Source of the DNA: a virus
IMG/VR virus record: IMGVR_UViG_3300029489_000102
DNA length: 64,000 bases
Strand: one strand, 5' to 3'
Made by a program: the position numbers and the translations under genes. The notes beneath the pieces are model-generated. The model was not told the DNA's origin. It ran no database searches and saw only the letters and a program-made list of their open reading frames with translations. Shown one piece after another: positions 8,905 through 62,744 of the stretch (the first letter of the stretch is position 1; each line of letters opens with the position of its first letter).

Positions 8905-9170
8905 ACCAGCAACATCGGCAACAGACCGGCAACGGAAAAACGCTGATATATCGGCGTTTTTGGACGTGTTGCTGATGTTGCGACTCAAAACCCTATTTTT
9001 TTATTATTCTTTTCTTTTATATGCGATTTACTTTTTACCAGCAACATTAGCAACAAAAGATAAAAAGAGTAGAATGAAATCCTTAAAAACATCGTAATAA
9101 CAATGCTTTTTAAGAATCTGACCCCTCATTTTGTGAGGGAAGAACCGGCAACAGACCAGCAACAGAAAAA
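8905..9170. other. candidate origin of replication: GCAACA/CGGCAACAGACC iterons flanking an AT-rich segment
   Basis: Iteron-like repeats at 8905-8935, 9038-9058 and 9145-9165, with a >100-bp AT-rich stretch (8991-9120) in an otherwise 57% GC genome. Immediately downstream of the primase-helicase gene. Confidence 0.4.
8934..8963 (+). terminator. near-perfect palindrome AAAAACGCTGATATATCGGCGTTTTT (bidirectional terminator-like)
   Basis: Stem-loop flanked by A-run and T-run, directly after the primase gene. Confidence 0.55.
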
Positions 9171-9273
9171 TGGAAGCCACACGATACTTAGCTGGCAGCT
9201 TTTGTGGGAGCCTACGTCTGTGGGCAACGGCAAAGGCGGCCTACTTTGTGATACATGAAAGCGAGGAACAGCT

Positions 9274-10341
9274 ATGAGCAAGATTATCACCTGTGAGCAG
9301 GTCAGCAATGGTCATCCGGACAAAATCTGTGATCAGATCGCAGACGCCATTGTGACCGACATCCTCCAGCACGACAAGAACGCCCGTGTGGCAATCGAGT
9401 GTCTGCTGAAACGCAGCCAGCTCTTTATTGCCGGCGAGGTCACCACCGATTACCAGCCCAACTACCAGCAGATCGTCCATGAGGTCATCACCCGCATTGG
9501 TGCTGACAAGATGGGCTTTGATTTCCGGGAGCTGCTCCGCATCGGCATCCTGGTCGATAAGCAGTCGCCGGATATTGCACTGGGCGTGGATAAGGGCGGT
9601 GCTGGTGATCAGGGCATCATGTACGGCTACGCCACCAACGAGACCGCCGAACAGATGCCAATCCCCTACATGGTCGCCACCAAGTTCCTGCAACTGCTGA
9701 AGAACCATCCGAGCAAGATGTTCCGGGCAGATGCCAAGGCGCAGGTCAGCTACGACTACGACACCGGCCGAATCACTACGTTCCTCTGCTCTGTGCAGCA
9801 CAGCCCGGACGTGGAGGTCAGCGATTTCCGCCACATCATCGAATCCATGATGGTGCTGGCTGCCTGTGAGTACGGTCTGGACGGGAACTTCCAGAAACTG
9901 GTGAACCCCACCGGCCGGTTCGTGCTGGGCGGCAGCTATGCCGACTGTGGTGTCACCGGCCGTAAGCTGGCGTGCGATACCTACGGGGGCATCGGTCGAA
10001 TGGGCGGCGGTGCCCTCAGCGGCAAAGACCCCACCAAGGTAGACCGCTCCGCTGCATACATGGCGCGGAAGATCGCCAAGGATATCGTGCAGGCCGGCTA
10101 CGCTGACAAGTGCGAAGTCCAGCTGGCGTATGCCATCGGGGTGGTACAGCCGGTGGGTGTGGCGGTGGAGTGCTTCGGCACGGAACACCAGCCGCTGGAC
10201 TTCATCCAGGCTTACGTCAAGGACAGCTACGACCTGACCCCGCAGGGTATCATCCAGCGTCTGGGTCTGCTGGACGTGGACTACAACAAGGTCAGTGCCT
10301 ACGGTCACTTCGGAAAGCCCGGCCTGCCGTGGGAGGAATGA
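9274..10341 (+). CDS. metK: S-adenosylmethionine synthetase (methionine adenosyltransferase), phage-encoded
   Basis: GHPDKICDQIADA, GGAGDQGIMYGYA, NPTGRFVLGG, DTYGG, SGKDPTKVDRSAAYMAR: a near-complete set of MetK signature motifs. 355 aa is slightly shorter than bacterial MetK. Confidence 0.9.
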   Translation: MSKIITCEQVSNGHPDKICDQIADAIVTDILQHDKNARVAIECLLKRSQLFIAGEVTTDYQPNYQQIVHEVITRIGADKMGFDFRELLRIGILVDKQSPDIALGVDKGGAGDQGIMYGYATNETAEQMPIPYMVATKFLQLLKNHPSKMFRADAKAQVSYDYDTGRITTFLCSVQHSPDVEVSDFRHIIESMMVLAACEYGLDGNFQKLVNPTGRFVLGGSYADCGVTGRKLACDTYGGIGRMGGGALSGKDPTKVDRSAAYMARKIAKDIVQAGYADKCEVQLAYAIGVVQPVGVAVECFGTEHQPLDFIQAYVKDSYDLTPQGIIQRLGLLDVDYNKVSAYGHFGKPGLPWEE

Positions 10342-10344
10342 CCC

Positions 10345-10704
10345 GTGCCCCGCAGACCCAAGGTGCCGTGCCGACACCCCGGTTGCCCGGAGCTGGTTGA
10401 GCCGGGCAGCCTTTACTGTGCAATGCACCTGCCGCTGCACCCGGAAGTCACACGCCCAGCGGGTAAGCGTGGCTATACACGGCAGTGGCAAAAAATAAGC
10501 AGGCAGTACCTCCAAGCCCATCCGCTCTGCGCCGAGTGCATGAGGCAGGGGAGATACACGAAAGCCACCGTGGTAGACCATATCACACCGCACCGTGGTG
10601 ATCCCGGACTTTTCTGGGACGAAGCCAACTGGCAGCCGATGTGTAAACAGTGCCACGACCGCAAGACTTTGACCAAAGACATCCACCCGGTGTACCGCTA
10701 CTGA
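10345..10704 (+). CDS. HNH endonuclease
   Basis: GTG start after GGGAGGAA. Motif VDHITPHRGD...NWQPMCKQCHDRKT (HNH with Zn-binding Cys pairs). Confidence 0.85.
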   Translation: MPRRPKVPCRHPGCPELVEPGSLYCAMHLPLHPEVTRPAGKRGYTRQWQKISRQYLQAHPLCAECMRQGRYTKATVVDHITPHRGDPGLFWDEANWQPMCKQCHDRKTLTKDIHPVYRY

Positions 10705-11104
10705 CCCCCACCGGGGGCCGGGGTCACTTCTCTGTGGTGAAGTCAACAGAAGACCGGTGGCCCCTTTCGTGTGAAAAAACGCAAAATTCATAGGCCGGGG
10801 GTCCCGGCAATATCGGCGCAAAATGAACAAGGTGAAGATGAGGGCATCGGGGTGAACGCTCCGGTGCCTTTTGTTTTCCCCCGAAACAAACCAAAGCGTG
10901 TGAAAACCCTTGCAACATGGGACTTTTCGCACGTTTTAGCTTGTTCCGGGACAAGGAGAAGCAAGCAGCAGCCGGACGCCGCAAAAACAAACTAACCCGG
11001 CGGGGCAGTGCCGGCTGCCGCTTCGCTTCTTTTCGTATGCTTTTTGAGATTTTCCACTGGAACTGACATAGAAACGGCGAAAAATGAGGACGGGGTGAGG
11101 ATGG

Positions 11105-11407
11105 ATGGAAGATTACACAGCCGAGATGATCAAGGACATGGCGTTTTCCTTCTGTCCGCAGTGTGGCGCAGCCATCGTTCCGAACCATCGGGGACGACCG
11201 AGAAAATTCTGTTCCCCGGAATGTCGATCCAAGTGGAACAACACCCACCCAAGACCGCAGAACTGGAAGACCGTGCGGTCAAAGGTCTGCCCGGTGTGCG
11301 GCAGGGAGTTCTCCTACCGCCACCAGTATGGACTTCCAAGAAAATATTGCAGTCGAGCCTGTGCCAATAAGGGCAGGGCGAAGGGAGAGAGCAGCATTGG
11401 AAAATAA
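11105..11407 (+). CDS. zinc-ribbon protein (two CxxC...CxxC motifs), hypothetical
   Basis: CPQCG...CSPEC and CPVCG...CSRAC motifs. Confidence 0.45.
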   Translation: MEDYTAEMIKDMAFSFCPQCGAAIVPNHRGRPRKFCSPECRSKWNNTHPRPQNWKTVRSKVCPVCGREFSYRHQYGLPRKYCSRACANKGRAKGESSIGK

Positions 11408-11630
11408 AGTGATCGGTGTATTTGCAGTCTGCAACACCGCAGGCATCTGTGTACATGAGATTGACCATGCAGAGAACAGAGTCCTTGCTTCCATGAACGG
11501 GACAGACCCGGAATGGTATCCGATTACGGAAAAACCGCAGTCGGAGATGGGCGGGGACAGCGATGAACTGGAGTCGGGCTTTAAGTTCGGCTCCTTTTTT
11601 GTACCGTTCTCTGAGGTCATGCGTGTGTGA
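11397..11630 (+). CDS. small hypothetical protein (TTG start?)
   Basis: C-terminal half of ORF 11163-11630 looks protein-like; the N-terminal half is an alternate-frame artefact. AGGGAGAG RBS before the TTG. Confidence 0.3.
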   Translation: MENKVIGVFAVCNTAGICVHEIDHAENRVLASMNGTDPEWYPITEKPQSEMGGDSDELESGFKFGSFFVPFSEVMRV

Positions 11631-11651
11631 ATCTGAACTGGGAGGAGCTAC

Positions 11652-12920
11652 ATGAAAGCAACTGCTGAACTGAAAATGCTGCCGGTGACCGTACTCAAGC
11701 CGGCTGCATACAATCCCCGAAAAAAGCTGAAGCCGGGGGACAAGGAGTACGAGAAGATTAAGAACTCCATTGAGGAGTTTGGTTTTGCCGATCCGCTGGT
11801 GGTCAATGCCGATATGACGATCATCGGCGGCCATCAACGCCTGACCGTTGCGATGGCACTGGGTTATACCGAAGTGCCTTGTGCGGTGGTGGACATCGAC
11901 AAGACCCGAGAAAAAGCTCTGAACATTGCGCTCAACAAGATCACCGGCTCGTGGGATGATTCCCTGCTGGCTGACCTGCTGAAGGATATCGAGAACTCCA
12001 ACTTCGACCTGGGCAAGACGGGCTTTGAGCCGCCTGAGATCGAGACGCTGTTCAACAAGGTCCACGACAAGGACATCAAGGAAGATGACTTCGATGTGGA
12101 ATCTGAGATGAAGCAGCCGACCTTCTCGCAGGCAGGTGACCTTTGGATGCTGGGCCGGCACCGTGTTCTGTGCGGTGATTCTACGAAGGCGGAGTGCTAC
12201 GATACCCTGATGGACGGCGTGAAGGCCAACCTTGTGCTTTCCGATCCCCCGTACAATGTAGATGTGGAAGAAACGGCCGGTAAGATCATGAACGACAACA
12301 TGGGCGACTCGGAATTCTACGAGTTCCTGCTGGCGGCGTTTAAACAGATGCACGGTCATCTGGCGGATGACGGTTCCATCTACATCTTCCACGCCGATAC
12401 GGAAGGTCTGAATTTCCGAAAGGCGTTCAAGGATGCGGGATTCTATCTGTCCGGGTGCTGTATCTGGAAAAAGAATGCTCTGGTGCTGGGTCGCAGTCCC
12501 TATCAGTGGCAGCATGAACCCTGCCTCTATGGGTGGAAACTGAAGGGCAAGCACCAGTGGTACTCCGACCGTAAGCAGACCACCATCTGGGAGTACGACC
12601 GTCCCAAAGCAAACAAAGACCACCCGACCATGAAGCCCATCGGCCTGATGAGCTATCCCATCCGCAACTCTACCATGACCAACGGCATCGTCCTGGACCC
12701 CTTCCTCGGCAGCGGCTCGACCCTGATCGCCTGTGAGGAGACTGACCGGGCGTGCCGGGGCATTGAGCTTGACCCCAAATTCGTGGATGTTATCGTCAAG
12801 CGCTATATCGAGCACAGCGAAGGTCGCTACGAGGATGTGTATGTCCTCCGTGGCGGTCAAAAGTTGAAGTTCGATGAGGTGGCATCTTTCCAGCCGGAAC
12901 AGGAGGGCGCAGATGACTGA
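11652..12920 (+). CDS. ParB-like nuclease domain fused to N6-adenine/N4-cytosine DNA methyltransferase (beta class, PF01555-like)
   Basis: N-terminal ParB/Srx motif (GGHQRL), motif IV SDPPYN, C-terminal FLGSGST AdoMet-binding motif. Confidence 0.85.
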   Translation: MKATAELKMLPVTVLKPAAYNPRKKLKPGDKEYEKIKNSIEEFGFADPLVVNADMTIIGGHQRLTVAMALGYTEVPCAVVDIDKTREKALNIALNKITGSWDDSLLADLLKDIENSNFDLGKTGFEPPEIETLFNKVHDKDIKEDDFDVESEMKQPTFSQAGDLWMLGRHRVLCGDSTKAECYDTLMDGVKANLVLSDPPYNVDVEETAGKIMNDNMGDSEFYEFLLAAFKQMHGHLADDGSIYIFHADTEGLNFRKAFKDAGFYLSGCCIWKKNALVLGRSPYQWQHEPCLYGWKLKGKHQWYSDRKQTTIWEYDRPKANKDHPTMKPIGLMSYPIRNSTMTNGIVLDPFLGSGSTLIACEETDRACRGIELDPKFVDVIVKRYIEHSEGRYEDVYVLRGGQKLKFDEVASFQPEQEGADD

Positions 12921-13683
12921 ACCCAGATGTGTCCTGTTCCATGACAACTTCCAGAACTTCAAGTCCTACAACATTCCCAAGGCACAGCTGGTGATCGCCG
13001 ACATCCCGTATAACATCGGGTCGGACTTCTACGCCAGCCGCCCGGATTGGTATGTGGACGGAGATAACCGGAACGGAGAGAGCGATAAGGCCCGGAAAGC
13101 GGCATTCAATACCGACTTCACTTTCAATATCGCAGAATACTTCCATTTCTGTAACCGGCTGCTGAAGAAAGAACCCATGAAAGGGGAAAAAGGCGCACCG
13201 TGTATGATCGTGTTCTGTGCGTTCCAGCAGATCCCCAAGGTCATCACGGAAGCTGAGAAGTACGGGTTCAAAAATTATATCCCGCTGACCTTCTGTAAGA
13301 ACTACAGCCCGCAGGTCTTGAAAGCCAACATGAAGATCGTGGGTGCAACGGAGTATGCGCTGGTCCTCTACCGGGGCAAGCTCCCGAAGTTCAACAACGT
13401 CGGTAAGGACGGCAAGTCCCACATGATCTTCAATTGGTTTGACTGGAAACGAGATGGCAAGGACTATCCAAAGATCCATCCGTCCCAGAAACCGGTGTCC
13501 GTGCTGAAACGCCTGATCGAGATCTTTACCGATCCCGGAGATGTGGTCATCGACCCTTGCGCCGGCAGCGGAGCAACGCTCCGGGCAGCCAGAGAACTGG
13601 GACGTGACAGCTACGGATTTGAAGTGTCCAGGGATTTCTACCTGAAAGCCAAAGAGCAGATGGTCGGAGAGGAGGCTGTATGA
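12913..13683 (+). CDS. DNA methyltransferase (N6A/N4C type, DIPYN motif)
   Basis: ATG overlaps the previous stop. ADIPYN motif IV and C-terminal DPCAGSGAT motif I (beta-class order). Confidence 0.85.
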   Translation: MTEPRCVLFHDNFQNFKSYNIPKAQLVIADIPYNIGSDFYASRPDWYVDGDNRNGESDKARKAAFNTDFTFNIAEYFHFCNRLLKKEPMKGEKGAPCMIVFCAFQQIPKVITEAEKYGFKNYIPLTFCKNYSPQVLKANMKIVGATEYALVLYRGKLPKFNNVGKDGKSHMIFNWFDWKRDGKDYPKIHPSQKPVSVLKRLIEIFTDPGDVVIDPCAGSGATLRAARELGRDSYGFEVSRDFYLKAKEQMVGEEAV

Positions 13684-16151
13684 GCACCGAATCGAATATC
13701 CAACTGACCCTCGGCAGCCTCTTTGATGGCTCCGGGGGTTTTCCTTTGGGCGGTTTACTGACAGGCTGCATCACGCCGCTGTGGAGCAGCGAAGTGGAGC
13801 CCTTCGCCATCCGGGTCACGACCAAGCGTCTGCCCGAGGTGAAGCACTACGGGGATGTGTCCGCCATCAACGGCGCAGACTTGCCGCCGGTGGACATCAT
13901 CACCTTTGGCAGTCCTTGCCAGGACATGTCCATTGCCGGTAAACGAGACGGTCTGGATGGTTCACGGTCCAGCCTGTTCTATGAAGCGATTCGCATCGTG
14001 AAGGAAATGAGGTGTAAGACCAATGGAGCAAAACCAAGATTTATCGTATGGGAGAATGTGCCGGGGGCCTTCTCCTCAAACAAAGGGCAGGACTTCAAAG
14101 CAGTCCTCGAAGCCGTCATCGGTGTTAAGGAACCGTCCGCCGAGGTGCCTGCGCCTGACAAAAAAGGCTGGCCCGATGCTGATTACTATCTGGGAGACGG
14201 ATGGAGCGTCGCGTATCGAGTTCTTGACGCTCAATGGTGGGGCGTACCCCAAAGGAGAAAACGCATCTACCTTGTCGCAGATTTTGCAGACCACGGTGCC
14301 CCAAAAGTATTATTTGAGTCCGAAGGCGTGTCTGGGTATTCTGCGGAGGGCTTCCGTGCGTGGCAAAGAACTGCCTCCGGTGCTGAAAGCGGCGCTGGAA
14401 CGGCAGGCTGCTGCGGAAGACTCTGCCTGAACGACCAGGGCGGGGAGAGGATGGATGTGACCGAGGAGGTGACCGGAACACTCCGGGCACAAGAGCATGG
14501 GCATCAGCCGTGCGTCCTTGAAGCGGCCGGTTTCTGCACAGAACATTCCGCCAACGCGAGGAGCATCGGATATGAGGCAGAACGTTCTCCCACCCTCCGG
14601 GCCGGAGTCGTGCCTGCTGCCATCGCTCTGGAAAATCACCCGACTGATTGCCGGGTGAAGATCGCAAAGGACGGCAAGGTACAGACGCTGACCAGTCGGT
14701 GCGGTACGGGCGGTGGCAATGTCCCGTTGGTCATGGATGGCGTGGAAAACAGCGGGGAAGAGGTGGAAAACTCACCTGCAGTCACACTGAAAATTCGTTC
14801 TGGATGCGAGGGTGGCGGCAAAGGTGCTATCTGGCAGGAAGAAAAATCTGCTACCCTCGGCTGCAACAACGACCAGACCGTGTTCATCCCTTTTATGAAA
14901 GGAACGAGACCGCACTCACAGAGTGAAGCACCGACATGGAAACAGGGTGAAGTCGCAAATACACTCAATACGTTTGATGTCGGAGAACAGCGATGCAATG
15001 AACTGGCGATTAAAGCCTACGGTATCTGCTCCAAGGCCAGCCATTCCATGATGTCGGATAACCCCCATAGCGGTTTCTATGAAGCCAGTACCTCTCGGAC
15101 GTTGGATCGCAGCGGCGGTGACCCGACCTGTAACCAGGGTGGGCTGTGTATCTGTGAACCTGTTGTCTGCGTGGATCAGGGTGGAGGCAAGTCGAACTGT
15201 ACGGTGGACGAACAGGTGGCACCGCCTCTGGCCTGCACCCATGGCGGGGCTCCGGCAGTAGCCTTTACCCAGAACCAGCGGGATGAAGTCCGGGATCTGG
15301 GCGAGACGGCGGGTTCGCTGTCTGCACAGCCGGGAATGAAACAGCAGACCTTTGTGGCGCAGCCGGATGACGTGACGGCATTCCATGTGAATCAGCGCAA
15401 TGAGCTGATCGACCTGCATGGAAAGTCCGGTGCGCTCATGGCGACCCGAAGCGACCAGATGCAGACCTTCGTGCTGCAGGGCAACATAATCGGCCGCAAA
15501 GACGAGAATGGTCCGCAAGGTGACGGCATCAACGAAGATGTCTGCTTTACGCTGGATGCCACTGACCGTCACGCAGTCTGCGCACCGGAAGATGTCTACG
15601 CCATGACCACCGGCTCCTTCATGAGGGTGGAGGAGAATGTATCTCCCACCCTTATGGCCCGGGACTTTAAAGACCCTGCCACCATTGCACCGGTGCCACA
15701 CCTGAACGATGGCGTGTCGGGAACGGTGGCGACCGGGGCGCATCCCAGCGGATTCAATGGTCAGGACGCTTTCAATGACCGACTGGTCATCGATAACCCG
15801 GAGGCACAGCCGATCCCCGTGTCCTATACGGTTCGCCGTCTGACCCCGACCGAGTGCGCTCGGCTGCAAGGCTTTCCCGATTGGTGGTGCCGTGACCTCG
15901 AAACTGAGAATCCCACGGAAGAAGAAATCTCTTTCTGGCAGGATGTGTTTGAAACGCACCGCAGACTTGTGACTCAGGCCAAGAAGCCGAAGACGGAAAA
16001 GCAGATCCGAAAATGGCTGGCAGACCCGTATTCGGATGCCGCAGAGTATAAGCTCTGGGGCAATGGTGTCGCACTGCCGTGTGTCTTTTTTGTACTGTCC
16101 GGCATCGTCTGGGTAGCCGGATCGCCTGAGAATGGGAGTGAATCGGAGTGA
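13680..16151 (+). CDS. DNA (cytosine-5)-methyltransferase, large (823 aa, extended target-recognition region; possibly multispecific)
   Basis: Motif I FDGSGG, motif IV GSPCQDMSIAG, motif VI ENVPG, C-terminal RRLTPTECARLQGFPDWW. Long variable region between motifs VIII and IX. Confidence 0.9.
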   Translation: MSTESNIQLTLGSLFDGSGGFPLGGLLTGCITPLWSSEVEPFAIRVTTKRLPEVKHYGDVSAINGADLPPVDIITFGSPCQDMSIAGKRDGLDGSRSSLFYEAIRIVKEMRCKTNGAKPRFIVWENVPGAFSSNKGQDFKAVLEAVIGVKEPSAEVPAPDKKGWPDADYYLGDGWSVAYRVLDAQWWGVPQRRKRIYLVADFADHGAPKVLFESEGVSGYSAEGFRAWQRTASGAESGAGTAGCCGRLCLNDQGGERMDVTEEVTGTLRAQEHGHQPCVLEAAGFCTEHSANARSIGYEAERSPTLRAGVVPAAIALENHPTDCRVKIAKDGKVQTLTSRCGTGGGNVPLVMDGVENSGEEVENSPAVTLKIRSGCEGGGKGAIWQEEKSATLGCNNDQTVFIPFMKGTRPHSQSEAPTWKQGEVANTLNTFDVGEQRCNELAIKAYGICSKASHSMMSDNPHSGFYEASTSRTLDRSGGDPTCNQGGLCICEPVVCVDQGGGKSNCTVDEQVAPPLACTHGGAPAVAFTQNQRDEVRDLGETAGSLSAQPGMKQQTFVAQPDDVTAFHVNQRNELIDLHGKSGALMATRSDQMQTFVLQGNIIGRKDENGPQGDGINEDVCFTLDATDRHAVCAPEDVYAMTTGSFMRVEENVSPTLMARDFKDPATIAPVPHLNDGVSGTVATGAHPSGFNGQDAFNDRLVIDNPEAQPIPVSYTVRRLTPTECARLQGFPDWWCRDLETENPTEEEISFWQDVFETHRRLVTQAKKPKTEKQIRKWLADPYSDAAEYKLWGNGVALPCVFFVLSGIVWVAGSPENGSESE

Positions 16152-16957
16152 GCATCACCCTGACTGCTTTTCTTGAGCAGCTCGAAACCATCTGTGCCAC
16201 GAAACCGGACTATCGCATCGGCGGCAGCGGTACGGATGGAACCTGTGACTGCATTGGTCTTATCATCGGCGCAGTCCGCAGGGCTGGTGGAGGCTGGAAT
16301 GGCATCCACGGCAGTAACTACGCAGCCCGGAAACAGATGACGGACTTTGCAGAGATCAAATCCGCTGATCTGTTTGTGGGTGAGATCGTCTACAAAGCCC
16401 GAAAACCGGGAGACAGCAGCTACAATCTGCCGGACCGCTACAAGGCGAATGGCGGCGATTTGCTGGACTACTATCATGTAGGCGTCGTCACCAAGGTGCG
16501 TCCGCTGGAGATCACCCACTGTTCCACTACGGTGAACGGTAACAGCATCCACCGGGATGCAACGCTCGGCAAGTGGAAATACGGTGGCCGGCTGAAGGGC
16601 ATCGACTATGGAACGACTCAGGAGGAAACAGAGATGAGCGAAGTCAAGATGCAGGAGACCCAAAACAAGGCAACCGTTACGGGCGGAAGATTGAGTCTGC
16701 GCCAAGCTCCGTCCAAGACCGCAGACCGGCTGGCATGGATTCCCAATGGTACCCGGCTGGATGTGACCGGGCAAGGAGACGGCTGGTGTGCTGTAACCTA
16801 CGACACCATTCCCGGCTACGTCATGGAACGCTACCTGATCCTTGACGGAGAAACCGAGGAAAAGCCCAAGACGGATGCCGAGAGACTCGAAGCACTGGAA
16901 AACCAGGCGGCAGAGTTTGAGCGTCGTATCGCTGTGCTGGAGGGCGGAGCTGGCTGA
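16148..16957 (+). CDS. NlpC/P60-like peptidase with C-terminal SH3b domain and coiled-coil tail
   Basis: GTG overlaps the methylase stop. Cys (DCIGLI) and His (YHVGVV, ITHCST) spacing typical of NlpC/P60. SH3b-like GGRLSLRQAPS...GWCAVTYD. Confidence 0.5.
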   Translation: MSITLTAFLEQLETICATKPDYRIGGSGTDGTCDCIGLIIGAVRRAGGGWNGIHGSNYAARKQMTDFAEIKSADLFVGEIVYKARKPGDSSYNLPDRYKANGGDLLDYYHVGVVTKVRPLEITHCSTTVNGNSIHRDATLGKWKYGGRLKGIDYGTTQEETEMSEVKMQETQNKATVTGGRLSLRQAPSKTADRLAWIPNGTRLDVTGQGDGWCAVTYDTIPGYVMERYLILDGETEEKPKTDAERLEALENQAAEFERRIAVLEGGAG

Positions 16958-17026: not shown

Positions 17027-17160
17027 ATGATCTTGCACAGTCGTGTTTTGCACGAATCGTGTAAAAGGTCGAATATGAAGAATGTCGAGAAATGGCCTTG
17101 CTATTTCATCGATTCAGAGCGATATATGTGCTACCGAAAACAAAGAAAGGGGCACAAAGC
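17027..17160 (+). promoter_or_regulatory. conserved promoter/leader element, copy h (degenerate; ATGATC box 17027, -35 TTGCTA 17098-17103, -10 ATATAT 17122-17127)
   Basis: Member of a 9-copy family sharing upstream box, GGCCTTGCTAT, -10 region and transcribed leader GTGCTACCGAAA. Confidence 0.5.
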
Positions 17161-17161
17161 C

Positions 17162-18313
17162 ATGAAAAAGTACGCACTGAATATTGATGACCGCAAGGTT
17201 CTGGTAAGCCGCCTGATGGAGTTGACCGGGCTTCATTCCCGGTACACTTTCATGCCGCGCTGCGCTTACATCGTCGGCAGCTTCACCGTAGAAAAGGAGG
17301 GAACGCTTGTGATCGAAGACAGCGCTGCGCCGGAGATCATCCGGACGCTGCTGGACGAGGGCATCATCCGTGAGGAAGGTGCGGAAACCCCGGGGACTCC
17401 GGAAACGGAAGCCACCTGTGGGGAGGCCACGGAATCGGAGTGTGAAGAGTCAGATGAGACTGTGGACGGCACCGAAGATACCCAGCCCACCGTGGAACCG
17501 GGCGCAACTGCCGAGGAATCCCCGGAAGCTCAGGAACCGATGGACGTAGATGAGCCGATGGACACTGTGAATGACACCGATGCGGATGAGGCACCTGCTC
17601 CGACCGAACAGCCGACCTTGCAGGATGTGGATGAGCTGACCATCAGCCTGCCGATGTCCGGGCATACCGCCCAGAGCCTGCGGAATTTCCTGAACCTCAT
17701 GTACAGCCGAGGCCCTCTGCTGAACAAAGCGATGGGTACGAACTTCACGGTGTCGCAGGGACTTCTGGACGCACTGGAACAGGCAACGCCCCATACGATG
17801 AGCGAGATGCTGGATGAGCTGGAAGAATACCGCCTGGGTGCCGGTACCACCGGCATGACCGGCATCCAGATCACGGCGGAGAAGATCAGCCTGGCTTTTG
17901 CCGGTCCGCTGACGCAGGAGAAGGTCCGTGCCTACACGGAACTCTGCGCCGCCATGAACCGGATGGCAATCGCTCAGAAGCGGATCCAGGCAAAGACCGT
18001 CAACGATGCCAATGAGAAGTACGCACTCCGCATCTGGCTGATCCGACTGGGTCTGAATGGAGATGAACACAAGACCATCCGCAAACTCCTGATGCAGAAC
18101 CTTTCCGGTCATGCGGCATTCCGCACCGAGGAAGATGCCGAAAAGTTCCGGGTCAAGGAAAAGGCAAAGCGGGATGCGCTGAAAGCCGCAAAACAGGCGG
18201 CACACGGCGGCGTTTCTGCCGCCGAGGAAACGGCCGAAGCGGCAGCGGAAGCCCCCACACAGCCCGACTGTGGGGCAGACGGCGCACCCCAGGCGCAGGA
18301 GACGGGAGCGTAA
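17162..18313 (+). CDS. hypothetical protein with long acidic low-complexity insert; C-terminal ~80 aa homologous to the C-terminus of the downstream amidoligase-like protein
   Basis: Shared motif NEKYALRIWLIRLGLNGDEHKTIRKLLMQNLSGHAAFR versus NEKYAMRCWMLRLGFIGDEFKTAREILLRNMEGNASWR. D/E/T/P-rich region about aa 95-190. Confidence 0.5.
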   Translation: MKKYALNIDDRKVLVSRLMELTGLHSRYTFMPRCAYIVGSFTVEKEGTLVIEDSAAPEIIRTLLDEGIIREEGAETPGTPETEATCGEATESECEESDETVDGTEDTQPTVEPGATAEESPEAQEPMDVDEPMDTVNDTDADEAPAPTEQPTLQDVDELTISLPMSGHTAQSLRNFLNLMYSRGPLLNKAMGTNFTVSQGLLDALEQATPHTMSEMLDELEEYRLGAGTTGMTGIQITAEKISLAFAGPLTQEKVRAYTELCAAMNRMAIAQKRIQAKTVNDANEKYALRIWLIRLGLNGDEHKTIRKLLMQNLSGHAAFRTEEDAEKFRVKEKAKRDALKAAKQAAHGGVSAAEETAEAAAEAPTQPDCGADGAPQAQETGA

Positions 18314-18437
18314 GCTCCTGACCCCTTATGTGGGCCGCCGGATAAGAGAGAGCTTCTTCCATTGTACCGATATTAACTCTGAAAATGTACAGTATCAAGT
18401 GTGTTTTTTGCCATAATGTACACGATCTTTGTCCTGA

Positions 18438-18544
18438 ATGATCGGTGATTATTTGACCCTTTATGGCCTTGCTATCCTCCCCACATGACGGTAATATGCA
18501 CATACCGCAAGGGGAACAGAACAAGACAAAAGGAGATAAACACC
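18438..18544 (+). promoter_or_regulatory. conserved promoter/leader element, copy a (ATGATCGGTGA 18438; -35 TTGCTA 18469-18474; -10 TAATAT 18492-18497)
   Basis: Same architecture as the other copies. An inverted copy of the upstream box (TGTACACGATC) lies at 18417-18427. Confidence 0.6.
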
Positions 18545-19480
18545 ATGAACGATAAGACCAGAGAGCAGATCGAAGCCATGAAGATGCAGACCATCGGGGT
18601 CGAGGTTGAGATGAACAACATCACCCGCGAGAAAGCCGCCAGAAAGGTTGCCGAGTTCTTCGGGACGACCGCATGGTACGCAGCCAGCGAGTACGGGTAC
18701 ATGAGCTGGGCTTGCAAGGACCAGCAGGGCAGGGTTTGGAAATTCCAGCGAGACATCAGCATCCACGGACCGGAAGCTGAAAAGTGCGAGATGGTGACCC
18801 CCATCCTTACCTACGAGGACATCGAGACCTTGCAGGCAATCATCCGACTGCTCCGCAAGGCTGGCGCAAAGTCCAGCCCCAGTCGGGGATGCGGCGTTCA
18901 CATCCACATCGGCAAGGGCAACCACACCCCCAAGACCCTGCGGAATCTGGTCAACATCATGGCTGCCCACGAAGAACAGATCGGCAGAGCGATTCGCATC
19001 GATGCAGGCAGAACCGGACAGTATTGCCGAGTGGTCGACCCCCGATTCCTTGACCAGCTGAACAAGAGAAAGCCGACGACCATGACTGAGCTTGCCGACA
19101 TCTGGTACGCCAGCAACCACGCAAACTACGGCAGAACGGCACATTACAATGAAAGCCGATACCATATGCTGAACCTCCACGCCACCTTCACCAAGGGCAC
19201 GATTGAATTCCGGCTTTTCCAGTTTGCCGACCCCAGCGACGGCAAGCAGAACGGACTTCACGCCGGTGAGCTGAAAGCCTACATCCAGCTTTGCCTCGCA
19301 ATGAGCCAGCTTGCCAAGATGGTGAAGACCGCAAGCCCCAAGCCCCAGCAGACCGACAACGAGAAATATGCAATGCGGTGCTGGATGCTTCGGCTGGGCT
19401 TCATCGGGGACGAGTTCAAAACAGCACGGGAGATCCTTCTGCGGAATATGGAGGGCAACGCAAGCTGGCGCAACGCATAA
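18545..19480 (+). CDS. putative amidoligase (Amidoligase_2 / GS-like carboxylate-amine ligase family)
   Basis: IGVEVEM N-terminal strand and GCGVHIHIG motif are reminiscent of the phage amidoligase family. Genomic association with GGCT-like genes. Assignment from recalled family features, not a search. Confidence 0.55.
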   Translation: MNDKTREQIEAMKMQTIGVEVEMNNITREKAARKVAEFFGTTAWYAASEYGYMSWACKDQQGRVWKFQRDISIHGPEAEKCEMVTPILTYEDIETLQAIIRLLRKAGAKSSPSRGCGVHIHIGKGNHTPKTLRNLVNIMAAHEEQIGRAIRIDAGRTGQYCRVVDPRFLDQLNKRKPTTMTELADIWYASNHANYGRTAHYNESRYHMLNLHATFTKGTIEFRLFQFADPSDGKQNGLHAGELKAYIQLCLAMSQLAKMVKTASPKPQQTDNEKYAMRCWMLRLGFIGDEFKTAREILLRNMEGNASWRNA

Positions 19481-19504
19481 GCGCCGACTTGCACGGGCAC
19501 CTAT

Positions 19505-19526
19505 CGGGCGGGCAACCGCCCTTTAG
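19505..19526 (+). terminator. hairpin GGGCGGGCAACCGCCC + TTTA
   Basis: GC stem directly after the amidoligase-like gene. Confidence 0.45.
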
Positions 19527-19550
19527 GCGGTAGAAGGAGGGCGATACGCC

Positions 19551-19781
19551 ATGAAAAATGAAACCAGAGAAACCGCACCCGGCAGAACGTTCCGGGTGGT
19601 CATCACCGAGACCCTCAAACGGGTGGTCGAGGTCAACGAATCCGAGATCAAGGAACCCACGATGGATGAGGCCGTCCAGGCGGTCAGCGACTGGTGGCAC
19701 AACGGACAGATCATTTTGGAAGCCGAGGACTTTGACGGCGTGGACTTTTCCGCAGCGGAAGGCGGTGAGGTCGGTGATTGA
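19551..19781 (+). CDS. small acidic hypothetical protein
   Basis: 76-aa ORF with GGAGG RBS. Confidence 0.4.
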   Translation: MKNETRETAPGRTFRVVITETLKRVVEVNESEIKEPTMDEAVQAVSDWWHNGQIILEAEDFDGVDFSAAEGGEVGD

Positions 19782-20310
19782 TCGCTTCCGGTTCGACAAG
19801 GGCGGGATCAGCAGAAAGCCGTCCCGGTACTATCTTGCATACGGCAGCAACCTTGACATGGAACGGATGGAACACAGATGCCCCTATGCGGTGCCGGTCG
19901 GTGTTACCGAGATCTACGGATACCGACTCCTGTTCAAGAAAAGTAAGACCGGGTGCTACGCCACCATCGAGCAGGACGCCAATGAAAGCGTTCCAGCTGT
20001 GGTCTGGTTGCTTTCCGAGTTTGATGAACTGCTGCTGGACCGGTACGAAGGCTGCCCTCGGTACTATTACAAGAAGCAGTTCCAGCTTCCCGTCTGGAAT
20101 CTGGATGGGCATCGGATGAAGAAGTTGAAAACCTGCATGGCATACATCCTGCACGAAGAACGGCAGCTCGGCTGCCCCAGCCATGAGTACTTCGACCTGC
20201 TGGCAGACGGGTATACGGGGTGGGGATTCCCGACAGATACATTGCACAGCGGGCTGTCTTCCAGCATCGGAAAGGCGGCAGCGGTGGAGTTCCTCAAAGA
20301 AATCGACTGA
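19765..20310 (+). CDS. gamma-glutamyl cyclotransferase-like (GGCT/AIG2 family) protein 1
   Basis: YYLAYGSNLDMERMEHRCP motif. GTG start overlapping the upstream small ORF; the first ~70 codons of ORF 19558 are an alternate-frame artefact. Confidence 0.65.
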   Translation: MRSVIDRFRFDKGGISRKPSRYYLAYGSNLDMERMEHRCPYAVPVGVTEIYGYRLLFKKSKTGCYATIEQDANESVPAVVWLLSEFDELLLDRYEGCPRYYYKKQFQLPVWNLDGHRMKKLKTCMAYILHEERQLGCPSHEYFDLLADGYTGWGFPTDTLHSGLSSSIGKAAAVEFLKEID

Positions 20311-20350
20311 GTACAATTTTGACGATTCTGTGAGGAAATCATTGTGCAGG

Positions 20351-20442
20351 ATATGATGCACATTGGCCTTGCTATTCGGGCAAAACAGAGGCATATATAG
20401 CATACCGCCAGACAACAGCGGAAACGAAAGGAGCAAGCAACT
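20351..20442 (+). promoter_or_regulatory. conserved promoter/leader element, copy i (degenerate; -35 TTGCTA 20369-20374; -10 ATATAT about 20393-20399)
   Basis: GGCCTTGCTATT ... GCATATATAGCATACCGCC matches the family consensus. Confidence 0.5.
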
Positions 20443-20925
20443 ATGAACGAAAAGAAGTATTACATCGCATACGGCAGCAACCTATCGGTGGAGCAGATGG
20501 CACAGCGGTGCCCGGATGCCCGCATTGTGGGTCAGGCTGTTCTGGAAGACTGGGAGCTGGCCTTCCACGGCTGTGCGACCATCCTGCCGAACAAGGGAAA
20601 GAACACGCCGGTTCTGGTGTGGGAGATCTCCGCTGGCGATGAGAAGAACCTCGACATCTACGAAGGTTATCCGAACTTCTATCGCAAGGAAAACATGACG
20701 GTCGAGGTGGTGAGCAAAGATGCAGAGCCCATGACCGTCACCGCAATGGTCTACATCATGGAAGACACCTACGGCGAGCGGATGCCGAGCCGGTACTACT
20801 ATCGGGTCCTTCACGATGGCTATAAGGCATTTCATTTCCCGATGCACATTCTGGAAGGTGCACTGAAGAAGTGTACCAGCAACAAGAAACTCGCGGAGAA
20901 TATGATCAAGGAGGTGCAGGGATGA
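20443..20925 (+). CDS. gamma-glutamyl cyclotransferase-like (GGCT/AIG2 family) protein 2
   Basis: YYIAYGSNLSVEQMAQRCP, LEDWELAF, VLVWEI, LDIYEGYP motifs. Confidence 0.75.
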   Translation: MNEKKYYIAYGSNLSVEQMAQRCPDARIVGQAVLEDWELAFHGCATILPNKGKNTPVLVWEISAGDEKNLDIYEGYPNFYRKENMTVEVVSKDAEPMTVTAMVYIMEDTYGERMPSRYYYRVLHDGYKAFHFPMHILEGALKKCTSNKKLAENMIKEVQG

Positions 20926-54951: not shown

Positions 54952-55737
54952 ATGGCATACACTAACAGTCCCTTAGTGGTTTATACGAACCTCAGCCCGA
55001 ACCATTCTGGGCAGCGGACACACAGCATCGACCGCATCACCCCGCACTGTGTGGTGGGGCAGTTGTCTGCGGAAAGTATCTGTGGCTGCTTCATCAGCCC
55101 GAGTCGTCAGGCAAGTTGTAACTACGGCATCGGCAAGGACGGCCGTGTGTCGCTCTGTGTCGAAGAAAAGAACCGGAGCTGGTGCTCTTCCAGTGCAGCA
55201 AACGATCAGCGGGCTATCACTATCGAGTGCGCCAGTGACCTGACCCACCCATACGCCATGAACAGTGCCGTCTACACTTCGCTTATCAAGCTCTGTACCG
55301 ACATCTGCAAGCGGAACGGTAAGACCAAGCTGCTCTGGCTGGGGGACAAGAACAAGACGCTGAACTATGCGCCGGCATCGGATGAGATGGTTCTGACCGT
55401 CCACCGCTGGTATGCGAACAAAGCCTGCCCCGGCGACTGGCTGTACAGCCGCCTCAGTGATCTGGCGGCCAAGGTAACGGCGGCACTGGGCACTCCTGTT
55501 GAATCCACTGGCTTACAGGCAGCTTCTTTGAAGGATATGGAGTCCGCAGAGGTTGTGACAAAGGTGGCCACGCTGTTTACCGCAAACCAGAAGCAGTCCG
55601 GCATCCTTGCCAGCGTGTCCATGGCGCAGTTCATTCTGGAATCCGGCTACGGCAAGTCCGAGCTGGCACAGAATGCCAATAACTGCTTTGGCATGAAGGC
55701 ATCACTTTCCGGGAACACCTGGTCGGGTTTTGCCTAG
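54952..55737 (+). CDS. endolysin part 1: N-acetylmuramoyl-L-alanine amidase (Amidase_2/PGRP) plus start of glucosaminidase domain, ending at in-frame TAG
   Basis: Amidase_2 motifs (ITPHCVV, AITIECA, HRWYANKACPGDW). Glucosaminidase start SMAQFILESGYGKSELAQNANNCFGMKA. Stop TAG 55735-55737. Confidence 0.8.
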   Translation: MAYTNSPLVVYTNLSPNHSGQRTHSIDRITPHCVVGQLSAESICGCFISPSRQASCNYGIGKDGRVSLCVEEKNRSWCSSSAANDQRAITIECASDLTHPYAMNSAVYTSLIKLCTDICKRNGKTKLLWLGDKNKTLNYAPASDEMVLTVHRWYANKACPGDWLYSRLSDLAAKVTAALGTPVESTGLQAASLKDMESAEVVTKVATLFTANQKQSGILASVSMAQFILESGYGKSELAQNANNCFGMKASLSGNTWSGFA

Positions 55738-55749
55738 GATGGGCATTCC

Positions 55750-56424
55750 GTGTATTCGATGAAAACCGGGGAGCAGAACACGGACGGCAGCTATGTAAGC
55801 ATTACGGCAGACTTCCGAAAGTACAGTTCCATTGAGGACTCTATCAACGACCATTCCGCTTACCTGCTGGGAGCTATGAACGGCAGCCAAAAGCGGTACG
55901 AAGGACTGGCAGGCTGCACTGACTACAAGAAAGCCGTGCAGATCATCAAGGACGGCGGTTACGCGACGAGCCTTGACTATGTACAGAACCTTTGCCGGAT
56001 CATTGAGCAGTGGAACCTGACCCAGTACGATGCGGCGGTAGCCACTACGCCCACTACGGCCTTGTACCGTGTGCGCAAGAATTGGCCGGATGCCGCATCC
56101 CAGAAGGGTGCGTTCCGTGACCTCGGTAACGCAAAAGCGTGTGCGGACAAGAACCCTGGCTATTCTGTGTTCGATGAGAACGGCAAGGTCGTCTATCCCA
56201 CCAGCACGGTGTTTCAGCCCTACACGGTCCGGGTGTCCATCTCTGACCTGCACATCCGCAAGGGCCCCGGCACGAACTACGGTTCCCGTGGTTTTACTGG
56301 CAAGGGTGTGTTCACCATTGTTTCGGAGGCAACAGGCAAGGGCGCATCCAAGTGGGGCTTGCTGAAATCCTATGCCAGCAAGCGTAACGGCTGGATCAGC
56401 CTCGATTACGTCAAGAAGGTCTAA
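55750..56424 (+). CDS. endolysin part 2: remainder of glucosaminidase domain + two cell-wall-binding repeats + SH3b-like domain (same frame as part 1)
   Basis: DGHSVYSMKTGEQNTDGSYVSITADFRKYSSIEDSINDHSAYLL continues the glucosaminidase fold. 55750 and 54952 share the reading frame; only the TAG separates them. Confidence 0.7.
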   Translation: MYSMKTGEQNTDGSYVSITADFRKYSSIEDSINDHSAYLLGAMNGSQKRYEGLAGCTDYKKAVQIIKDGGYATSLDYVQNLCRIIEQWNLTQYDAAVATTPTTALYRVRKNWPDAASQKGAFRDLGNAKACADKNPGYSVFDENGKVVYPTSTVFQPYTVRVSISDLHIRKGPGTNYGSRGFTGKGVFTIVSEATGKGASKWGLLKSYASKRNGWISLDYVKKV

Positions 56425-61536: not shown

Positions 61537-62085
61537 TTGGGACGAGTGCAAGAAGGACTTTTGACGCTGTATAGTGAGGTCGAATCATCGCCAGTCCGCT
61601 GGCTCTGGTATCCATATATTGCAATTGGAAAAATAACCTTGCTACAGGGAGACCCCGGTGATGGCAAGTCTACAATGATGATGAATCTGATTGCTGAAAT
61701 AACCACAGGAGGTGCCTTTCCTGACGGAAAACCATTGGAGCAACCACAGAGGGTTATCTACCAATGCTCAGAAGACGGGGTTGCGGATACGATAAAACCC
61801 CGTCTGGAAGAACAGGGCGCAGACTGCAGCAAAGTGGCATTTATCAATGAAGAAGTCAACAGTGGGCTGACACTCGATGATGAACGCATTAGGGATGCAA
61901 TCGTTGCGTTTCGACCGAGGCTTGTTGTGATTGACCCAATTCAAGCATACCTCTCCAGTGACTCCGATTTGCAGATTGCTGGAAAAGCAAGGCGGCTGAT
62001 GCAGCACCTTGGAATGTGGGCGGCTACCTATGATTGCGCCATTGTGCTGATAGGGCACTTGAACAAAAAGGAAGGCATATATCTT
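61537..62085 (+). CDS. AAA_25/RecA-like ATPase (RepA/primase-associated type), apparently 3'-truncated at ~62085
   Basis: WLWYPYIAIGKITLLQGDPGDGKST Walker A, LVVIDPIQ Walker B, GHLNKK. Past ~62085 the frame is antisense to the convergent paralogue. TTG/GTG start. Confidence 0.55.
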
Positions 62086-62744
62086 GCCGCCGGTGCTTCT
62101 TTGTTCGGTGTGCGTGTGATTGCAAGAATACTTCTTGCAGCACCCGCAATATCAATAGAACCGTTGGTACGATAAAGAGGGTTGGTATCTCTCATCTTGT
62201 TCATATGAGCGATAATCACGATGGCACAGCCTGTATTTTTTGCAACTGCAATCAAGTGATTAAACTCTGCCCTTGTTTCGTTGGCATTGTTCATTGAACA
62301 GTTCTCTCCGATATAGAAACTCATCGGGTCAAGAATTAAAAGTTTTGCGTGATACCTTTCGATTGCTTCAGCAATACGGTTATCTCCAAAGGATAAAGAT
62401 TTTTCATCTTCTTTGATGAAGATAAGATTTTCTCCGTTCCCACCGGCAGAGTTAAAACGGGGGACTACCGTATCGTCTGCATCATCTTCCGTTGTCTGAT
62501 AGATGACTGTCATAGGCTCTGTTTCTTCTTCGGTAAAGGGGAGAGGTTCTCCCTTTGAGAGCAGGGCGGCTATGGAAAGCATTAACTTGCTTTTCCCATC
62601 GCCAGGATCGCCCTGCAAGAGCGTAACCTTGCCGAACGGAATATACGGATACCACAGCCATTTCACTTCTTTCGGTTCAATCTCACTTGCCTTGATAACT
62701 TCAAGAGGTACATTTACATTCATTTCATTTTCCATCTGCTTCAT
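62028..62744 (-). CDS. AAA_25/RecA-like ATPase paralogue (minus strand)
   Basis: KWLWYPYIPFGKVTLLQGDPGDGKSK, LLILDPMS, AHMNKMRDTNPLYRTNGSIDIAGAARS. About 40% GC. Confidence 0.65.
   Translation of the reverse strand: MKQMENEMNVNVPLEVIKASEIEPKEVKWLWYPYIPFGKVTLLQGDPGDGKSKLMLSIAALLSKGEPLPFTEEETEPMTVIYQTTEDDADDTVVPRFNSAGGNGENLIFIKEDEKSLSFGDNRIAEAIERYHAKLLILDPMSFYIGENCSMNNANETRAEFNHLIAVAKNTGCAIVIIAHMNKMRDTNPLYRTNGSIDIAGAARSILAITRTPNKEAPAARYMPSFLFKCPISTMAQS

Follow-up and report, generated by a model that had tools for sequence, protein, structure and literature searches.

The window, a 64,000-nucleotide stretch of viral DNA (IMG/VR record IMGVR_UViG_3300029489_000102), carries a methionine adenosyltransferase gene (metK) followed by three DNA methylase genes, a module that is real yet widespread and known from earlier work on this phage group. 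It is probably the accessory 'self-methylation' block of a Ca. Heliusvirales-type temperate siphovirus in Gemmiger formicilis. The best explanation for MetK, argued from the sequence, is an unregulated supply of S-adenosylmethionine (SAM) for anti-restriction self-methylation, a role that we regard as reasonably likely. A more interesting detail than MetK is the C5-cytosine methylase, in which TRD-like cassettes appear to be gained and lost. All of the module ORFs were found on the plus strand at the following positions.

8802-9273, plus strand: intergenic region from the primase/helicase gene to metK (sequence, repeat, promoter and Rfam scans)
9274-10341, plus strand: compact MetK (methionine adenosyltransferase), 355 aa (Pfam, NCBIfam, structure match, phrog_1569)
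10345-10704, plus strand: small HNH endonuclease, 119 aa (PF01844; phrog_144)
11105-11407, plus strand: conserved zinc-ribbon protein, 100 aa (weak zinc-ribbon Pfam match; phrog_2308; zinc-finger part of phrog_1271)
11400-11630, plus strand: possible small ORF with a putative start codon, ~75 aa (conservation just 5' of the ParB methylase)
11652-12920, plus strand: ParB_N-fused beta-class DNA methylase, N6-adenine or N4-cytosine, 422 aa (Pfam, phrog_498, PADLOC)
12913-13683, plus strand: second N6/N4 methylase of the beta class, 256 aa when read from the ATG at 12913, ORF from 12874 (Pfam; phrog_67)
13680-16151, plus strand: C5-cytosine methylase with a complete catalytic core, 823 aa (PF00145; PADLOC PDLC03715)
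14265-15833, plus strand: variable region of the C5 methylase, aa 196-718 (tandem 'x-T-L-x-A' anchored units)
16148-16957, plus strand: SH3-domain protein, 269 aa (PF08239; start overlaps the C5 methylase stop)

A full MetK homologue had been recognised in the preliminary description and profile searches bore this out. The three MetK domains (PF00438, PF02772, PF02773) together spanned aa 4-354 with scores well over the cut-offs (97.5, 87.5 and 186.9 bits for S-AdoMet_synt_N, _M and _C), the NCBIfam metK equivalog TIGR01034 was matched at 402.8 bits relative to a cut-off of 309.4, and the E. coli enzyme (7ll3) aligned end to end over E. coli residues 5-369 (E=5.5e-97). The quoted motifs GHPDKICDQ, GAGDQG, DTYGG and SGKDPTKVDRSAAY were all present. 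Every one of the E. coli residues that we take to be catalytic or ligand-binding (H14, D16, K17, E42, D118, K165, F230, D238, R244, K245, K265, K269 and D271) was kept in the window MetK. Thirteen of fourteen such residues were invariant across 90 compact-clade MetKs, with the fourteenth showing a single D-to-H exception (D238), and the metK dN/dS of 0.04-0.10 points to strong purifying selection. Judged by its domains, the equivalog cut-off and its catalytic residues, the window MetK is intact. The full-length match to phrog_1569 (453 bits) is labelled 'unknown function' in PHROGs, and several deposited relatives carry MetK mislabelled as 'peptidase'.

The phage MetKs formed a compact clade of 345-359 aa while cellular MetKs had 378-419 aa, and a check for truncation relative to host-type enzymes placed the difference at ~40 aa, with the C-terminal tail gone and the loop before GAGDQG shortened. 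This clade was monophyletic in a neighbour-joining tree without bootstrap support, and the length classes agreed. The SAM riboswitch RF00162 was located upstream of metK at five of six non-phage loci and at none of nine phage loci including the window, where an Rfam scan of the metK upstream region returned no match and no riboswitch. These patterns support the proposal that phage metK would escape host SAM-riboswitch regulation. A compact-clade MetK from Oribacterium parvum had a SAM-I riboswitch upstream and housekeeping genes as neighbours, a setting that would fit the compact clade being a working SAM synthetase.

Gene order was conserved from Streptococcus to Clostridia phages. The order primase, MetK, HNH, zinc ribbon, ParB methylase and C5 methylase was found in Streptococcus Javan55, an Evtepia phage and a Clostridium fessum prophage, and also in ~140 IMG/VR loci. 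After clustering of MetKs at 90% identity, a DNA methylase was located within 6-10 kb of MetK in 19 of 24 viral clusters versus 0 of 34 cellular clusters, and the other five of the 24 viral clusters had no methylase detectable nearby. Non-compact viral MetKs (43-47% identity) also adjoined a ParB methylase. The view that a phage-encoded MetK is unusual did not stand, as 138 phage records with MetK were found and, among 1032 Ca. Heliusvirales genomes, K00789 (MetK) occurs in 58.9% and K00558 (C5 methylase) in 67% (PMC11283538). In some digesters K00789 is the most abundant viral AMG.

The HNH endonuclease reported after MetK was matched by PF01844 and started 3 nt past the metK stop in the window and 5-9 nt past metK in most lineages; no other adjacency in the module is as well conserved as this pairing. 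PADLOC matched no restriction-endonuclease model to the HNH protein or the module, giving the former weak domain-level matches only. A Type II restriction-modification system was considered for the region and rejected, with the 119-aa HNH protein and its generic phage matches as the sole nuclease. The zinc-ribbon ORF (11105-11407), overlooked in the preliminary description, was kept between the HNH and ParB methylase genes with 31-99% identity across phage lineages. For the ORF at 11163-11630, which had only a faint PHROG match, relatives conserved the C-terminal half just 5' of the ParB methylase gene. The SH3 gene is a doubtful member of the module, being missing from many relatives.

Pfam matches to ParB_N and N6_N4_Mtase confirmed the two N6A/N4C methylases, one ParB-fused, that had been read from the sequence. 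The ParB methylase, identical to RefSeq WP_349183425.1, matched ParB_N (35.6 bits), N6_N4_Mtase (PF01555, 99.4 bits), phrog_498 (621 bits) and the PADLOC MTase_II model PDLC03229 (567 bits), and has ParB_N at its N-terminus and 'SDPPYN' (motif IV) preceding 'DPFLGSGST' (FxGxG, motif I). The second enzyme is without a ParB domain and has 'ADIPYN' (DIPY motif) before 'DPCAGSGAT'. Its start is most likely the ATG at 12913 that overlaps the upstream stop codon, a start that had been overlooked. Of 63 related loci, 42 had this second methylase, which makes it an accessory cassette.

The 823-aa C5 methylase and its enlarged target-recognition region were likewise upheld (PF00145). Motifs I, IV, VI and VIII were located within aa 15-195 and motifs IX and X within aa 719-796, in the order FxGxG (15), PCQ (79), ENV (125), QxRxR (191), IX (719) and X (794) when aligned to M.HhaI. 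Between them the variable region measured ~520 aa, as against ~100 aa in M.HhaI, and held about 10-13 TRD-like 'x-T-L-x-A' anchored units of ~25-55 aa each. The unit pattern was as in the SPR, rho11s and H2 methylases; similarity from unit to unit was weak and self-BLAST found no internal repeats in the enzyme. Homologues of 726-825 aa numbered >8000. Relatives that were 76-96% identical differed by block indels of 32-40 aa, one unit per block, and it is from these that gain and loss of cassettes among close relatives is read. The module methylases are orphan enzymes, probably of the anti-restriction type, because the best match of the C5 methylase was the PADLOC orphan-methylase (oMTase) model PDLC03715 (906 bits), no restriction-endonuclease model was matched and the neighbours are phage genes. 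By themselves, the five classical Bacillus-phage target sequences occurred 1183 times in the 60-kb phage, which together with about 13 TRD-like units would make the SAM demand plausibly high.

The gene set was that of a temperate siphovirus and included TerS, TerL, portal, major capsid protein, tape measure and three serine recombinases. TerL was 81-84% identical to those of Javan55 and the Evtepia phage over the TerL part present per locus, and assignment to the Ca. Heliusvirales or phi1207.3-like type was made from this homology, the order of replication, MetK/methylase and packaging genes, and the serine recombinases. The exact module proteins are present in RefSeq under Gemmiger formicilis. 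The module was placed within the replication-to-packaging block, away from the attachment-site moron position, with amidoligase/GGCT genes located between it and the terminase in this phage.

Upstream of metK, the 8802-9273 region included a hairpin with a T-run after it (8936-8961), two weak promoter-like sites (8978-9007 and 9047-9075) from a promoter scan whose count was at chance level, and several RGCAACA repeats in both orientations flanking an AT-rich stretch. As promoter- and terminator-like sites in the region occurred at chance frequency, the operon structure is only putative. Overlapping starts and stops chained the ParB methylase, second methylase, C5 methylase and SH3 genes, which would fit their co-translation.

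During lytic growth the compact MetK would turn ATP and methionine into SAM, with phage transcription driving metK outside host SAM-riboswitch feedback. The supply of methyl donor would be kept high while the orphan methylases (ParB-fused beta-class, an optional second beta-class and the C5 enzyme with its many TRD-like cassettes) modify replicating phage DNA before packaging, and progeny DNA would already be shielded from many restriction systems on entering a new host. For this role we infer that the enzyme would be active in vivo, that its expression would be suitably timed, that SAM would be limiting and that methylation would protect. The preliminary description had proposed that MetK boosts SAM for the methylases, and the conserved order, the methylase linkage and the missing riboswitch speak for it. 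Its novelty did not hold, as MetK supplying phage methylases is not a new idea; it was put forward for phi1207.3 in 2014 (Iannelli et al., PMC4260502) and also for Heliusvirales (PMC11283538).

Several observations count against this explanation. The literature search turned up no experiment in which SAM levels or phage methylation gain from a phage MetK, and the module showed no recognisable gene for SAH removal. Many palindromes are still avoided in the phage genome (CGCG 0.37, GGCC 0.47, CCWGG 0.31 and several 6-mers <0.2), so that methylation would give no blanket protection, and extra SAM would equally benefit the host systems that depend on it (Type I/III restriction and BREX). A single genetic study was found, a knockout in 12/111phiA of S. 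agalactiae; it reported biofilm and aggregation phenotypes in lysogens (PMC8223999), which would point to an effect on the host and to expression beyond the lytic phase.

Those phenotypes fit lysogenic conversion, whereby MetK would alter SAM-dependent physiology of the lysogen (AI-2, polyamines, cell-surface traits) and be kept for host benefit with the methylases incidental, a reading that we consider unlikely though worth weighing. When metK was deleted, biofilm, glycocalyx and aggregation were all reduced, and a plasmid copy of the gene gave partial rescue, but most complemented strains in the same study were without phenotype rescue and secondary mutations were present (PMC8223999). The intergenic region of its own with promoter-like sites would suit such a gene, whereas its position within the replication-to-packaging block, rather than at the moron position, and a methylase linkage kept across very different hosts and recurring with non-compact MetKs would not. 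A prophage restriction-modification or addiction system, in which the HNH protein is the nuclease, the methylases are the antidote and MetK secures host DNA methylation, is improbable. Renard 2021 took the equivalent 12/111phiA region as a putative restriction-modification system aiding prophage maintenance and the HNH gene is always adjacent, yet no specificity domain could be recognised in the HNH protein, its matches are to generic phage HNH families and to no restriction-endonuclease model, and it makes a poor cognate partner as one tiny nuclease for three methylases, one of them with many TRD-like units and an orphan-methylase model as its best match.

Two further readings concern the form of MetK itself. 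A divergent enzyme might sustain the SAM supply once host MetK is disabled, for example by a defence system that consumes SAM or by the SAM lyase or MetK inhibitor of a superinfecting phage, which we hold to be a slim prospect, marginally better than that of the addiction system. T3 SAMase is described as both cleaving SAM and inactivating host MetK via joint polymers, and a MetK without the C-terminal tail and with a short loop could conceivably escape inhibitors. However, the literature search returned no description of a SAM-depleting defence and neither a SAM lyase gene nor a related one was noticed in the window, so the earlier suggestion that MetK resists such defences found no support; the tight methylase linkage would also be left unexplained. 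Least probable is a catalytically dead or repurposed homologue with a misleading link to SAM. The ~40 missing residues, the altered loop and tail and the PHROGs label would be compatible with it, but the catalytic residues were all kept, the equivalog cut-off was passed, purifying selection was strong and one clade member has a SAM riboswitch ahead of it and housekeeping genes around it.

Among the closest known systems is Streptococcus pyogenes prophage phi1207.3. Its orf29-orf33 have an order in common with the window and include MetK (353 aa), HNH (121 aa), a ParB-like protein and methylase (410 aa) and a C5 methylase, and DNA primase, helicase and three serine recombinase genes are present as in the window element (PMC4260502). 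The phi1207.3 C5 methylase is of an ordinary 388 aa rather than 823 aa and a second beta-class methylase is absent, while amidoligase/GGCT genes, which the window phage has, are not listed in the excerpt of the phi1207.3 gene table covered; the hosts also differ, Streptococcus for phi1207.3 and Gemmiger for the window phage. Heliusvirales gut phages and the Javan and 12/111phiA prophages have the same module order (PMC11283538, PMC8223999), while the window lineage is set apart by a C5 methylase of 700-825 aa and a variable third methylase. Cellular Firmicutes MetKs (378-419 aa) have the fold, motifs and catalytic residues in common with the phage enzyme at 44-50% identity, but all retain the C-terminal tail that the phage enzyme is without, and in Bacillaceae the loop before GAGDQG is ~16 aa longer. 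Their genes have an S-box (SAM-I) riboswitch upstream and no methylases nearby, the opposite of the phage arrangement.

Multispecific C5 methylases are expressed by temperate phages and evade many restriction-modification systems (review PMC12707154). M.SPRI, M.Rho11sI and M.H2I of Bacillus temperate phages likewise place tandem 'S-P-T-L-T-T ... G ... hydrophobic strand' TRD units between motifs VIII and IX of a single catalytic core (motifs I-VIII and IX-X), but in 439-503 aa with 3-4 recognisable units as against 823 aa and about 13 here. Similarity between the two sets of units was weak (best 36% over 33 aa, E=0.19), and multispecificity of the window enzyme is putative. The phage SAM lyases T3 SAMase and Svi3-3 also manipulate the host SAM pool in restriction-modification conflict. 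The phages encoding them destroy SAM, disable SAM-dependent restriction and stay unmethylated, whereas the window phage is proposed to do the opposite, making SAM and methylating itself.

The open reading frames listed in the preliminary description were all present on the + strand at 9274-16151, together with a conserved zinc-ribbon protein that was absent from its list. Start and stop codons overlapped successively from the ParB methylase through to the SH3 gene at 16148.

Genes of the module and its flanks in the window (coordinates, strand, description)
Upstream of the module: helicase, VRR-NUC-like endonuclease, MazF-like gene and D5/NrS-1-type primase-helicase
9274-10341, +, MetK, 355 aa (three Pfam domains, NCBIfam equivalog, alignment with E. 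coli MetK)
Starts 3 nt past metK, +, HNH protein, 119 aa
11105-11407, +, zinc-ribbon protein, 100 aa, conserved
11652-12920, +, ParB_N domain and N6_N4 methylase
12913-13683, +, second N6_N4 methylase (ATG at 12913 the most likely start, overlapping the upstream stop codon)
13680-16151, +, C5 methylase, 823 aa
Starts at 16148, +, SH3 gene
Downstream of the module: amidoligase/GGCT cluster, TerS, TerL, portal, major capsid protein, 1957-aa tape measure, endolysin and three serine recombinases

The first gene had been read as a SAM synthetase, and this assignment held, as all three MetK Pfam domains scored above their cut-offs, the NCBIfam metK equivalog was matched at 402.8 bits (cut-off 309.4) and residues 4-354 aligned with E. 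coli MetK (E=5.5e-97). On the accompanying question of truncation, the protein was approximately 40 aa shorter than cellular enzymes with the catalytic residues kept. MetKs at least 53% identical to that of the window were 345-359 aa in length (n=88), the rest were 378-419 aa except for one of 356 aa, and the compact enzymes formed a single clade in a neighbour-joining tree without bootstrap values. Compact MetKs ended without a C-terminal tail (about 13 aa) and had lost stretches of 4 and 3 aa from the central domain. The loop that precedes the GAGDQG motif and gates the active site of MetK was reduced by 5 aa relative to E. coli and by about 16 aa relative to Bacillaceae. Thirteen of fourteen catalytic or ligand residues were invariant in 90 compact-clade sequences, with one D-to-H exception at the fourteenth, and dN/dS for metK was 0.04-0.10 against relatives 77-99% identical.

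A compact-clade MetK of 352 aa was also encoded in Oribacterium parvum ACB1 (comparison locus L087, 9787-11056), where it is located among TrkH/TrkA and PGK genes and 3' of a SAM-I riboswitch. The compact form is therefore a cellular housekeeping enzyme as well in at least one member of the Lachnospiraceae, a context consistent with the compact clade being a working SAM synthetase, and a Lachnospiraceae compact metK may be the source of the phage gene. The PHROGs family of compact MetK, phrog_1569, is marked as 'unknown function', which is probably why MetK is erroneously labelled 'peptidase' in several deposited 'NatCom' Heliusvirales phages (PV036427-PV036448).

No riboswitch was identified by Rfam in the window, in the S. 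cristatus prophage (L089) or at seven further phage loci, while RF00162 was located 100-550 nt 5' of metK in Acetivibrio, Bacillus haynesii, Niallia, Faecalibacterium and Oribacterium. At the RNA level the phage copy therefore stands outside host SAM feedback. Within the 472 bp 5' of metK there were two promoter-like sites, repeats of RGCAACA and a hairpin with a T-run after it; in a promoter and terminator scan, promoter-like and terminator-like matches occurred at chance frequency, not above shuffled sequence. Direct and inverted copies of RGCAACA were arranged around an AT-rich stretch in the primase-metK intergenic region (8900-9235), including the RGCAACA-bearing CGGCAACAGACCGGCAACGGAAAAA at 8916, which is repeated at 9146. 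This array is a candidate that could represent a replication origin (iterons) or regulator-binding sites. At one comparison locus (L067), an insertion of approximately 900 nt between metK and the HNH gene included a 93-bit match to the Rfam 'Fusobacteriales-1 RNA' (11650-11767, - strand), a motif not found in the window.

The window is a temperate siphovirus. Its TerL shared 81-84% identity, over the portion of TerL present at each locus, with the TerL proteins of two phages, Streptococcus Javan55 and an Evtepia phage assigned to Ca. Heliusvirales. Proteins identical to MetK and the ParB methylase are present in RefSeq from Gemmiger formicilis (WP_349183429.1 and WP_349183425.1, respectively), the exact sequences were found in 233 public contigs for MetK, 178 for the ParB methylase and 147 for the C5 methylase, and a prophage of Clostridium fessum SNUG30386 encodes a MetK 94% identical to that of the window.

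Other features of interest included a MazF-like growth-inhibitor homologue (phrog_1936, 5689-6399) directly upstream of and overlapping the primase-helicase gene, with an equivalent in the Evtepia phage. A second conserved accessory cluster (17027-20925), common to the Evtepia phage and most relatives, is located 3' of the methylases and comprises an amidoligase-like protein (17027-18313), an Amidoligase_2 enzyme (18485-19480) and two gamma-glutamyl cyclotransferase-like proteins (19558-20310 and 20443-20925). The endolysin was apparently split at 54952-56424, with one frame (54952-55737) matching Amidase_2 and positions 1-44 of the Glucosaminidase domain and the next (55750-56424) positions 55-123, which could reflect a frameshift, a pseudogene or a sequencing error. 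Past the serine recombinases, AAA_25 was matched by two overlapping opposite-strand frames, 61537-62175 (+) and 62028-62867 (-), and GC content drops from about 55% to 39% across 62-64 kb; the region 61537-64000 may be a prophage/host junction or another inserted element.

The association of MetK with methylases proposed in the preliminary description was borne out by recurring gene order and by cluster counts. The order MetK, HNH, zinc ribbon, ParB methylase, C5 methylase was also seen in Javan55, the Evtepia phage and genomic prophages, among them that of S. cristatus, and it recurred in two scans of IMG/VR. With MetK clustered at 90% identity and at least 6 kb demanded on each flank, a homologue of a module methylase was located near MetK in 19 of 24 viral clusters and in three of 37 genomic clusters; all three were prophages, so that the cellular count was 0 of 34. 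Two compact-clade loci (L087 and L090) were discounted as exceptions to the linkage, both being in non-phage contexts. A ParB methylase likewise adjoined non-compact viral MetKs (identity 43-47% over aligned spans of 331-376 aa), which suggests that the pairing may have been assembled more than once. Four IMG/VR contigs (L234, L236, L237 and L239) had a MetK about 43% identical over a span of about 370 aa with the ParB methylase 74 nt 3'.

The assumption that a MetK is out of the ordinary in a phage was wrong, given its earlier publication, its abundance in digesters and its presence in RefSeq. The module and the methyl-donor hypothesis were published for phi1207.3 in 2014 and again in 2024 for Heliusvirales, with MetK in 58.9% and a C5 methylase in 67% of the genomes, and phage MetK ranks with the most abundant viral AMGs of anaerobic digesters. 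Phage-borne SAM synthetase belongs to the commonest 'auxiliary metabolic genes' of gut and digester viromes, and its role was called undetermined in a 2026 paper. The finding is accordingly an ordinary one and no new system. The present analysis adds the recognition of a compact clade, the contrast in riboswitches, the statistics on linkage and the variation of the large C5 methylase by cassettes, the last being the one part that we would pursue. The first three sharpen the hypothesis to a SAM synthetase of a distinct compact clade that escapes riboswitch feedback and has a statistical link with orphan DNA methylases.

Under the proposed mechanism, SAM made under phage control and free of feedback would keep up heavy methylation of phage DNA as it replicates, and the orphan methylases would modify this DNA ahead of packaging as an anti-restriction pre-protection. 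Pre-protective methylation has been described as a 'Trojan horse' strategy (review PMC12707154). The five classical Bacillus-phage targets alone amount to 1183 sites in the 60-kb phage. Counting both strands, this gives an illustrative load of about 2400 methyl groups for each genome, and a burst of 100 genomes would call for a number in the order of 10^5. Such a demand, we infer, would be comparable to a bacterial SAM pool. Counting against the mechanism, the phage avoids many palindromes all the same. Observed/expected ratios (maximal-order Markov, window 1-60400) were 0.26 for CTAG, 0.37 for CGCG, 0.45 for ACGT, 0.47 for GGCC, 0.31 for CCWGG and 0.35 for GGWCC, and many 6-mers were avoided in the same region (CGTACG 0 against 9 expected, CTCGAG 1 against 11 expected). 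CCGG, GCGC, AGCT, TCGA and GCSGC were not avoided there, and with host composition uncorrected these might be the sites methylated by the phage.

Among the alternatives, lysogenic conversion is kept alive by the sole knockout study found, in which phenotypes were seen in the lysogen, and we regard it as unlikely. No experiment tying phage MetK to phage methylation or to counter-defence was found in the literature, and use of the gene in counter-defence has little or no support. The same is the case for a restriction-modification or addiction system, a reading dropped as no PADLOC restriction-endonuclease model matched and the best PADLOC match of the C5 methylase was an orphan-methylase model. 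A dead enzyme or pseudogene likewise has next to no support, given the residue conservation and dN/dS of metK. Cultured lysogens are available in Clostridium fessum SNUG30386 and in streptococci.

Both beta-class methylases had motif IV ahead of motif I (DPPY and DIPY), and the second is an accessory cassette that 42 of the 63 related loci carry. The C5 methylase had a normal core aligning to motifs I-VI, VIII and IX of M.HhaI, with motifs VIII and IX about 516-520 aa apart compared to about 100 aa in M.HhaI, and approximately 13 'T-L'-anchored units in this region. More than 8000 homologues of 726-825 aa were found. Relatives 76-96% identical differed by block indels of 32-40 aa, one unit each; for example, the window blocks at aa 405-444, 495-526 and 675-712 were present in 27%, 82% and 65%, respectively. 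Natural variants lacking aa 527-594 also exist, and two additional cassettes are not found in the window. Lengths among the 63 related loci took 17 distinct values from 696 to 824 aa, two shorter and probably truncated frames being set aside. Such variation is as would be expected of exchangeable target-recognition units (TRDs). Self-BLAST of the C5 methylase detected no internal repeats, these being visible solely as anchored motifs and block indels in relatives, and an AlphaFold2 model from a 20-sequence alignment was unusable (mean pLDDT 27.4).

A tentative and somewhat doubtful reading is that the 823-aa enzyme would be 'hyper-multispecific', with one core serving about ten exchangeable TRD cassettes. 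Near-identical phages would gain or lose these cassettes in step with changes in the restriction systems of their Gemmiger and Clostridia hosts, and the always-linked, riboswitch-less compact MetK would exist because methylation of the genome on this scale outruns the feedback-limited SAM supply of the host. If true, such enzymes would be useful to mine for new m5C specificities and would provide a gauge of restriction pressure in gut Firmicutes. Natural variants that differ by single cassettes provide a ready-made deletion series for mapping TRDs to targets. When the variable region was compared by BLAST with SPR, rho11s and H2, the multispecific C5 methylases of temperate Bacillus phages, the best E was 0.19, too weak for target assignment. 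In pattern the units resemble the TRDs of these enzymes, which have three to four recognisable units, whereas the proposed array would have about ten, or approximately three times as many.
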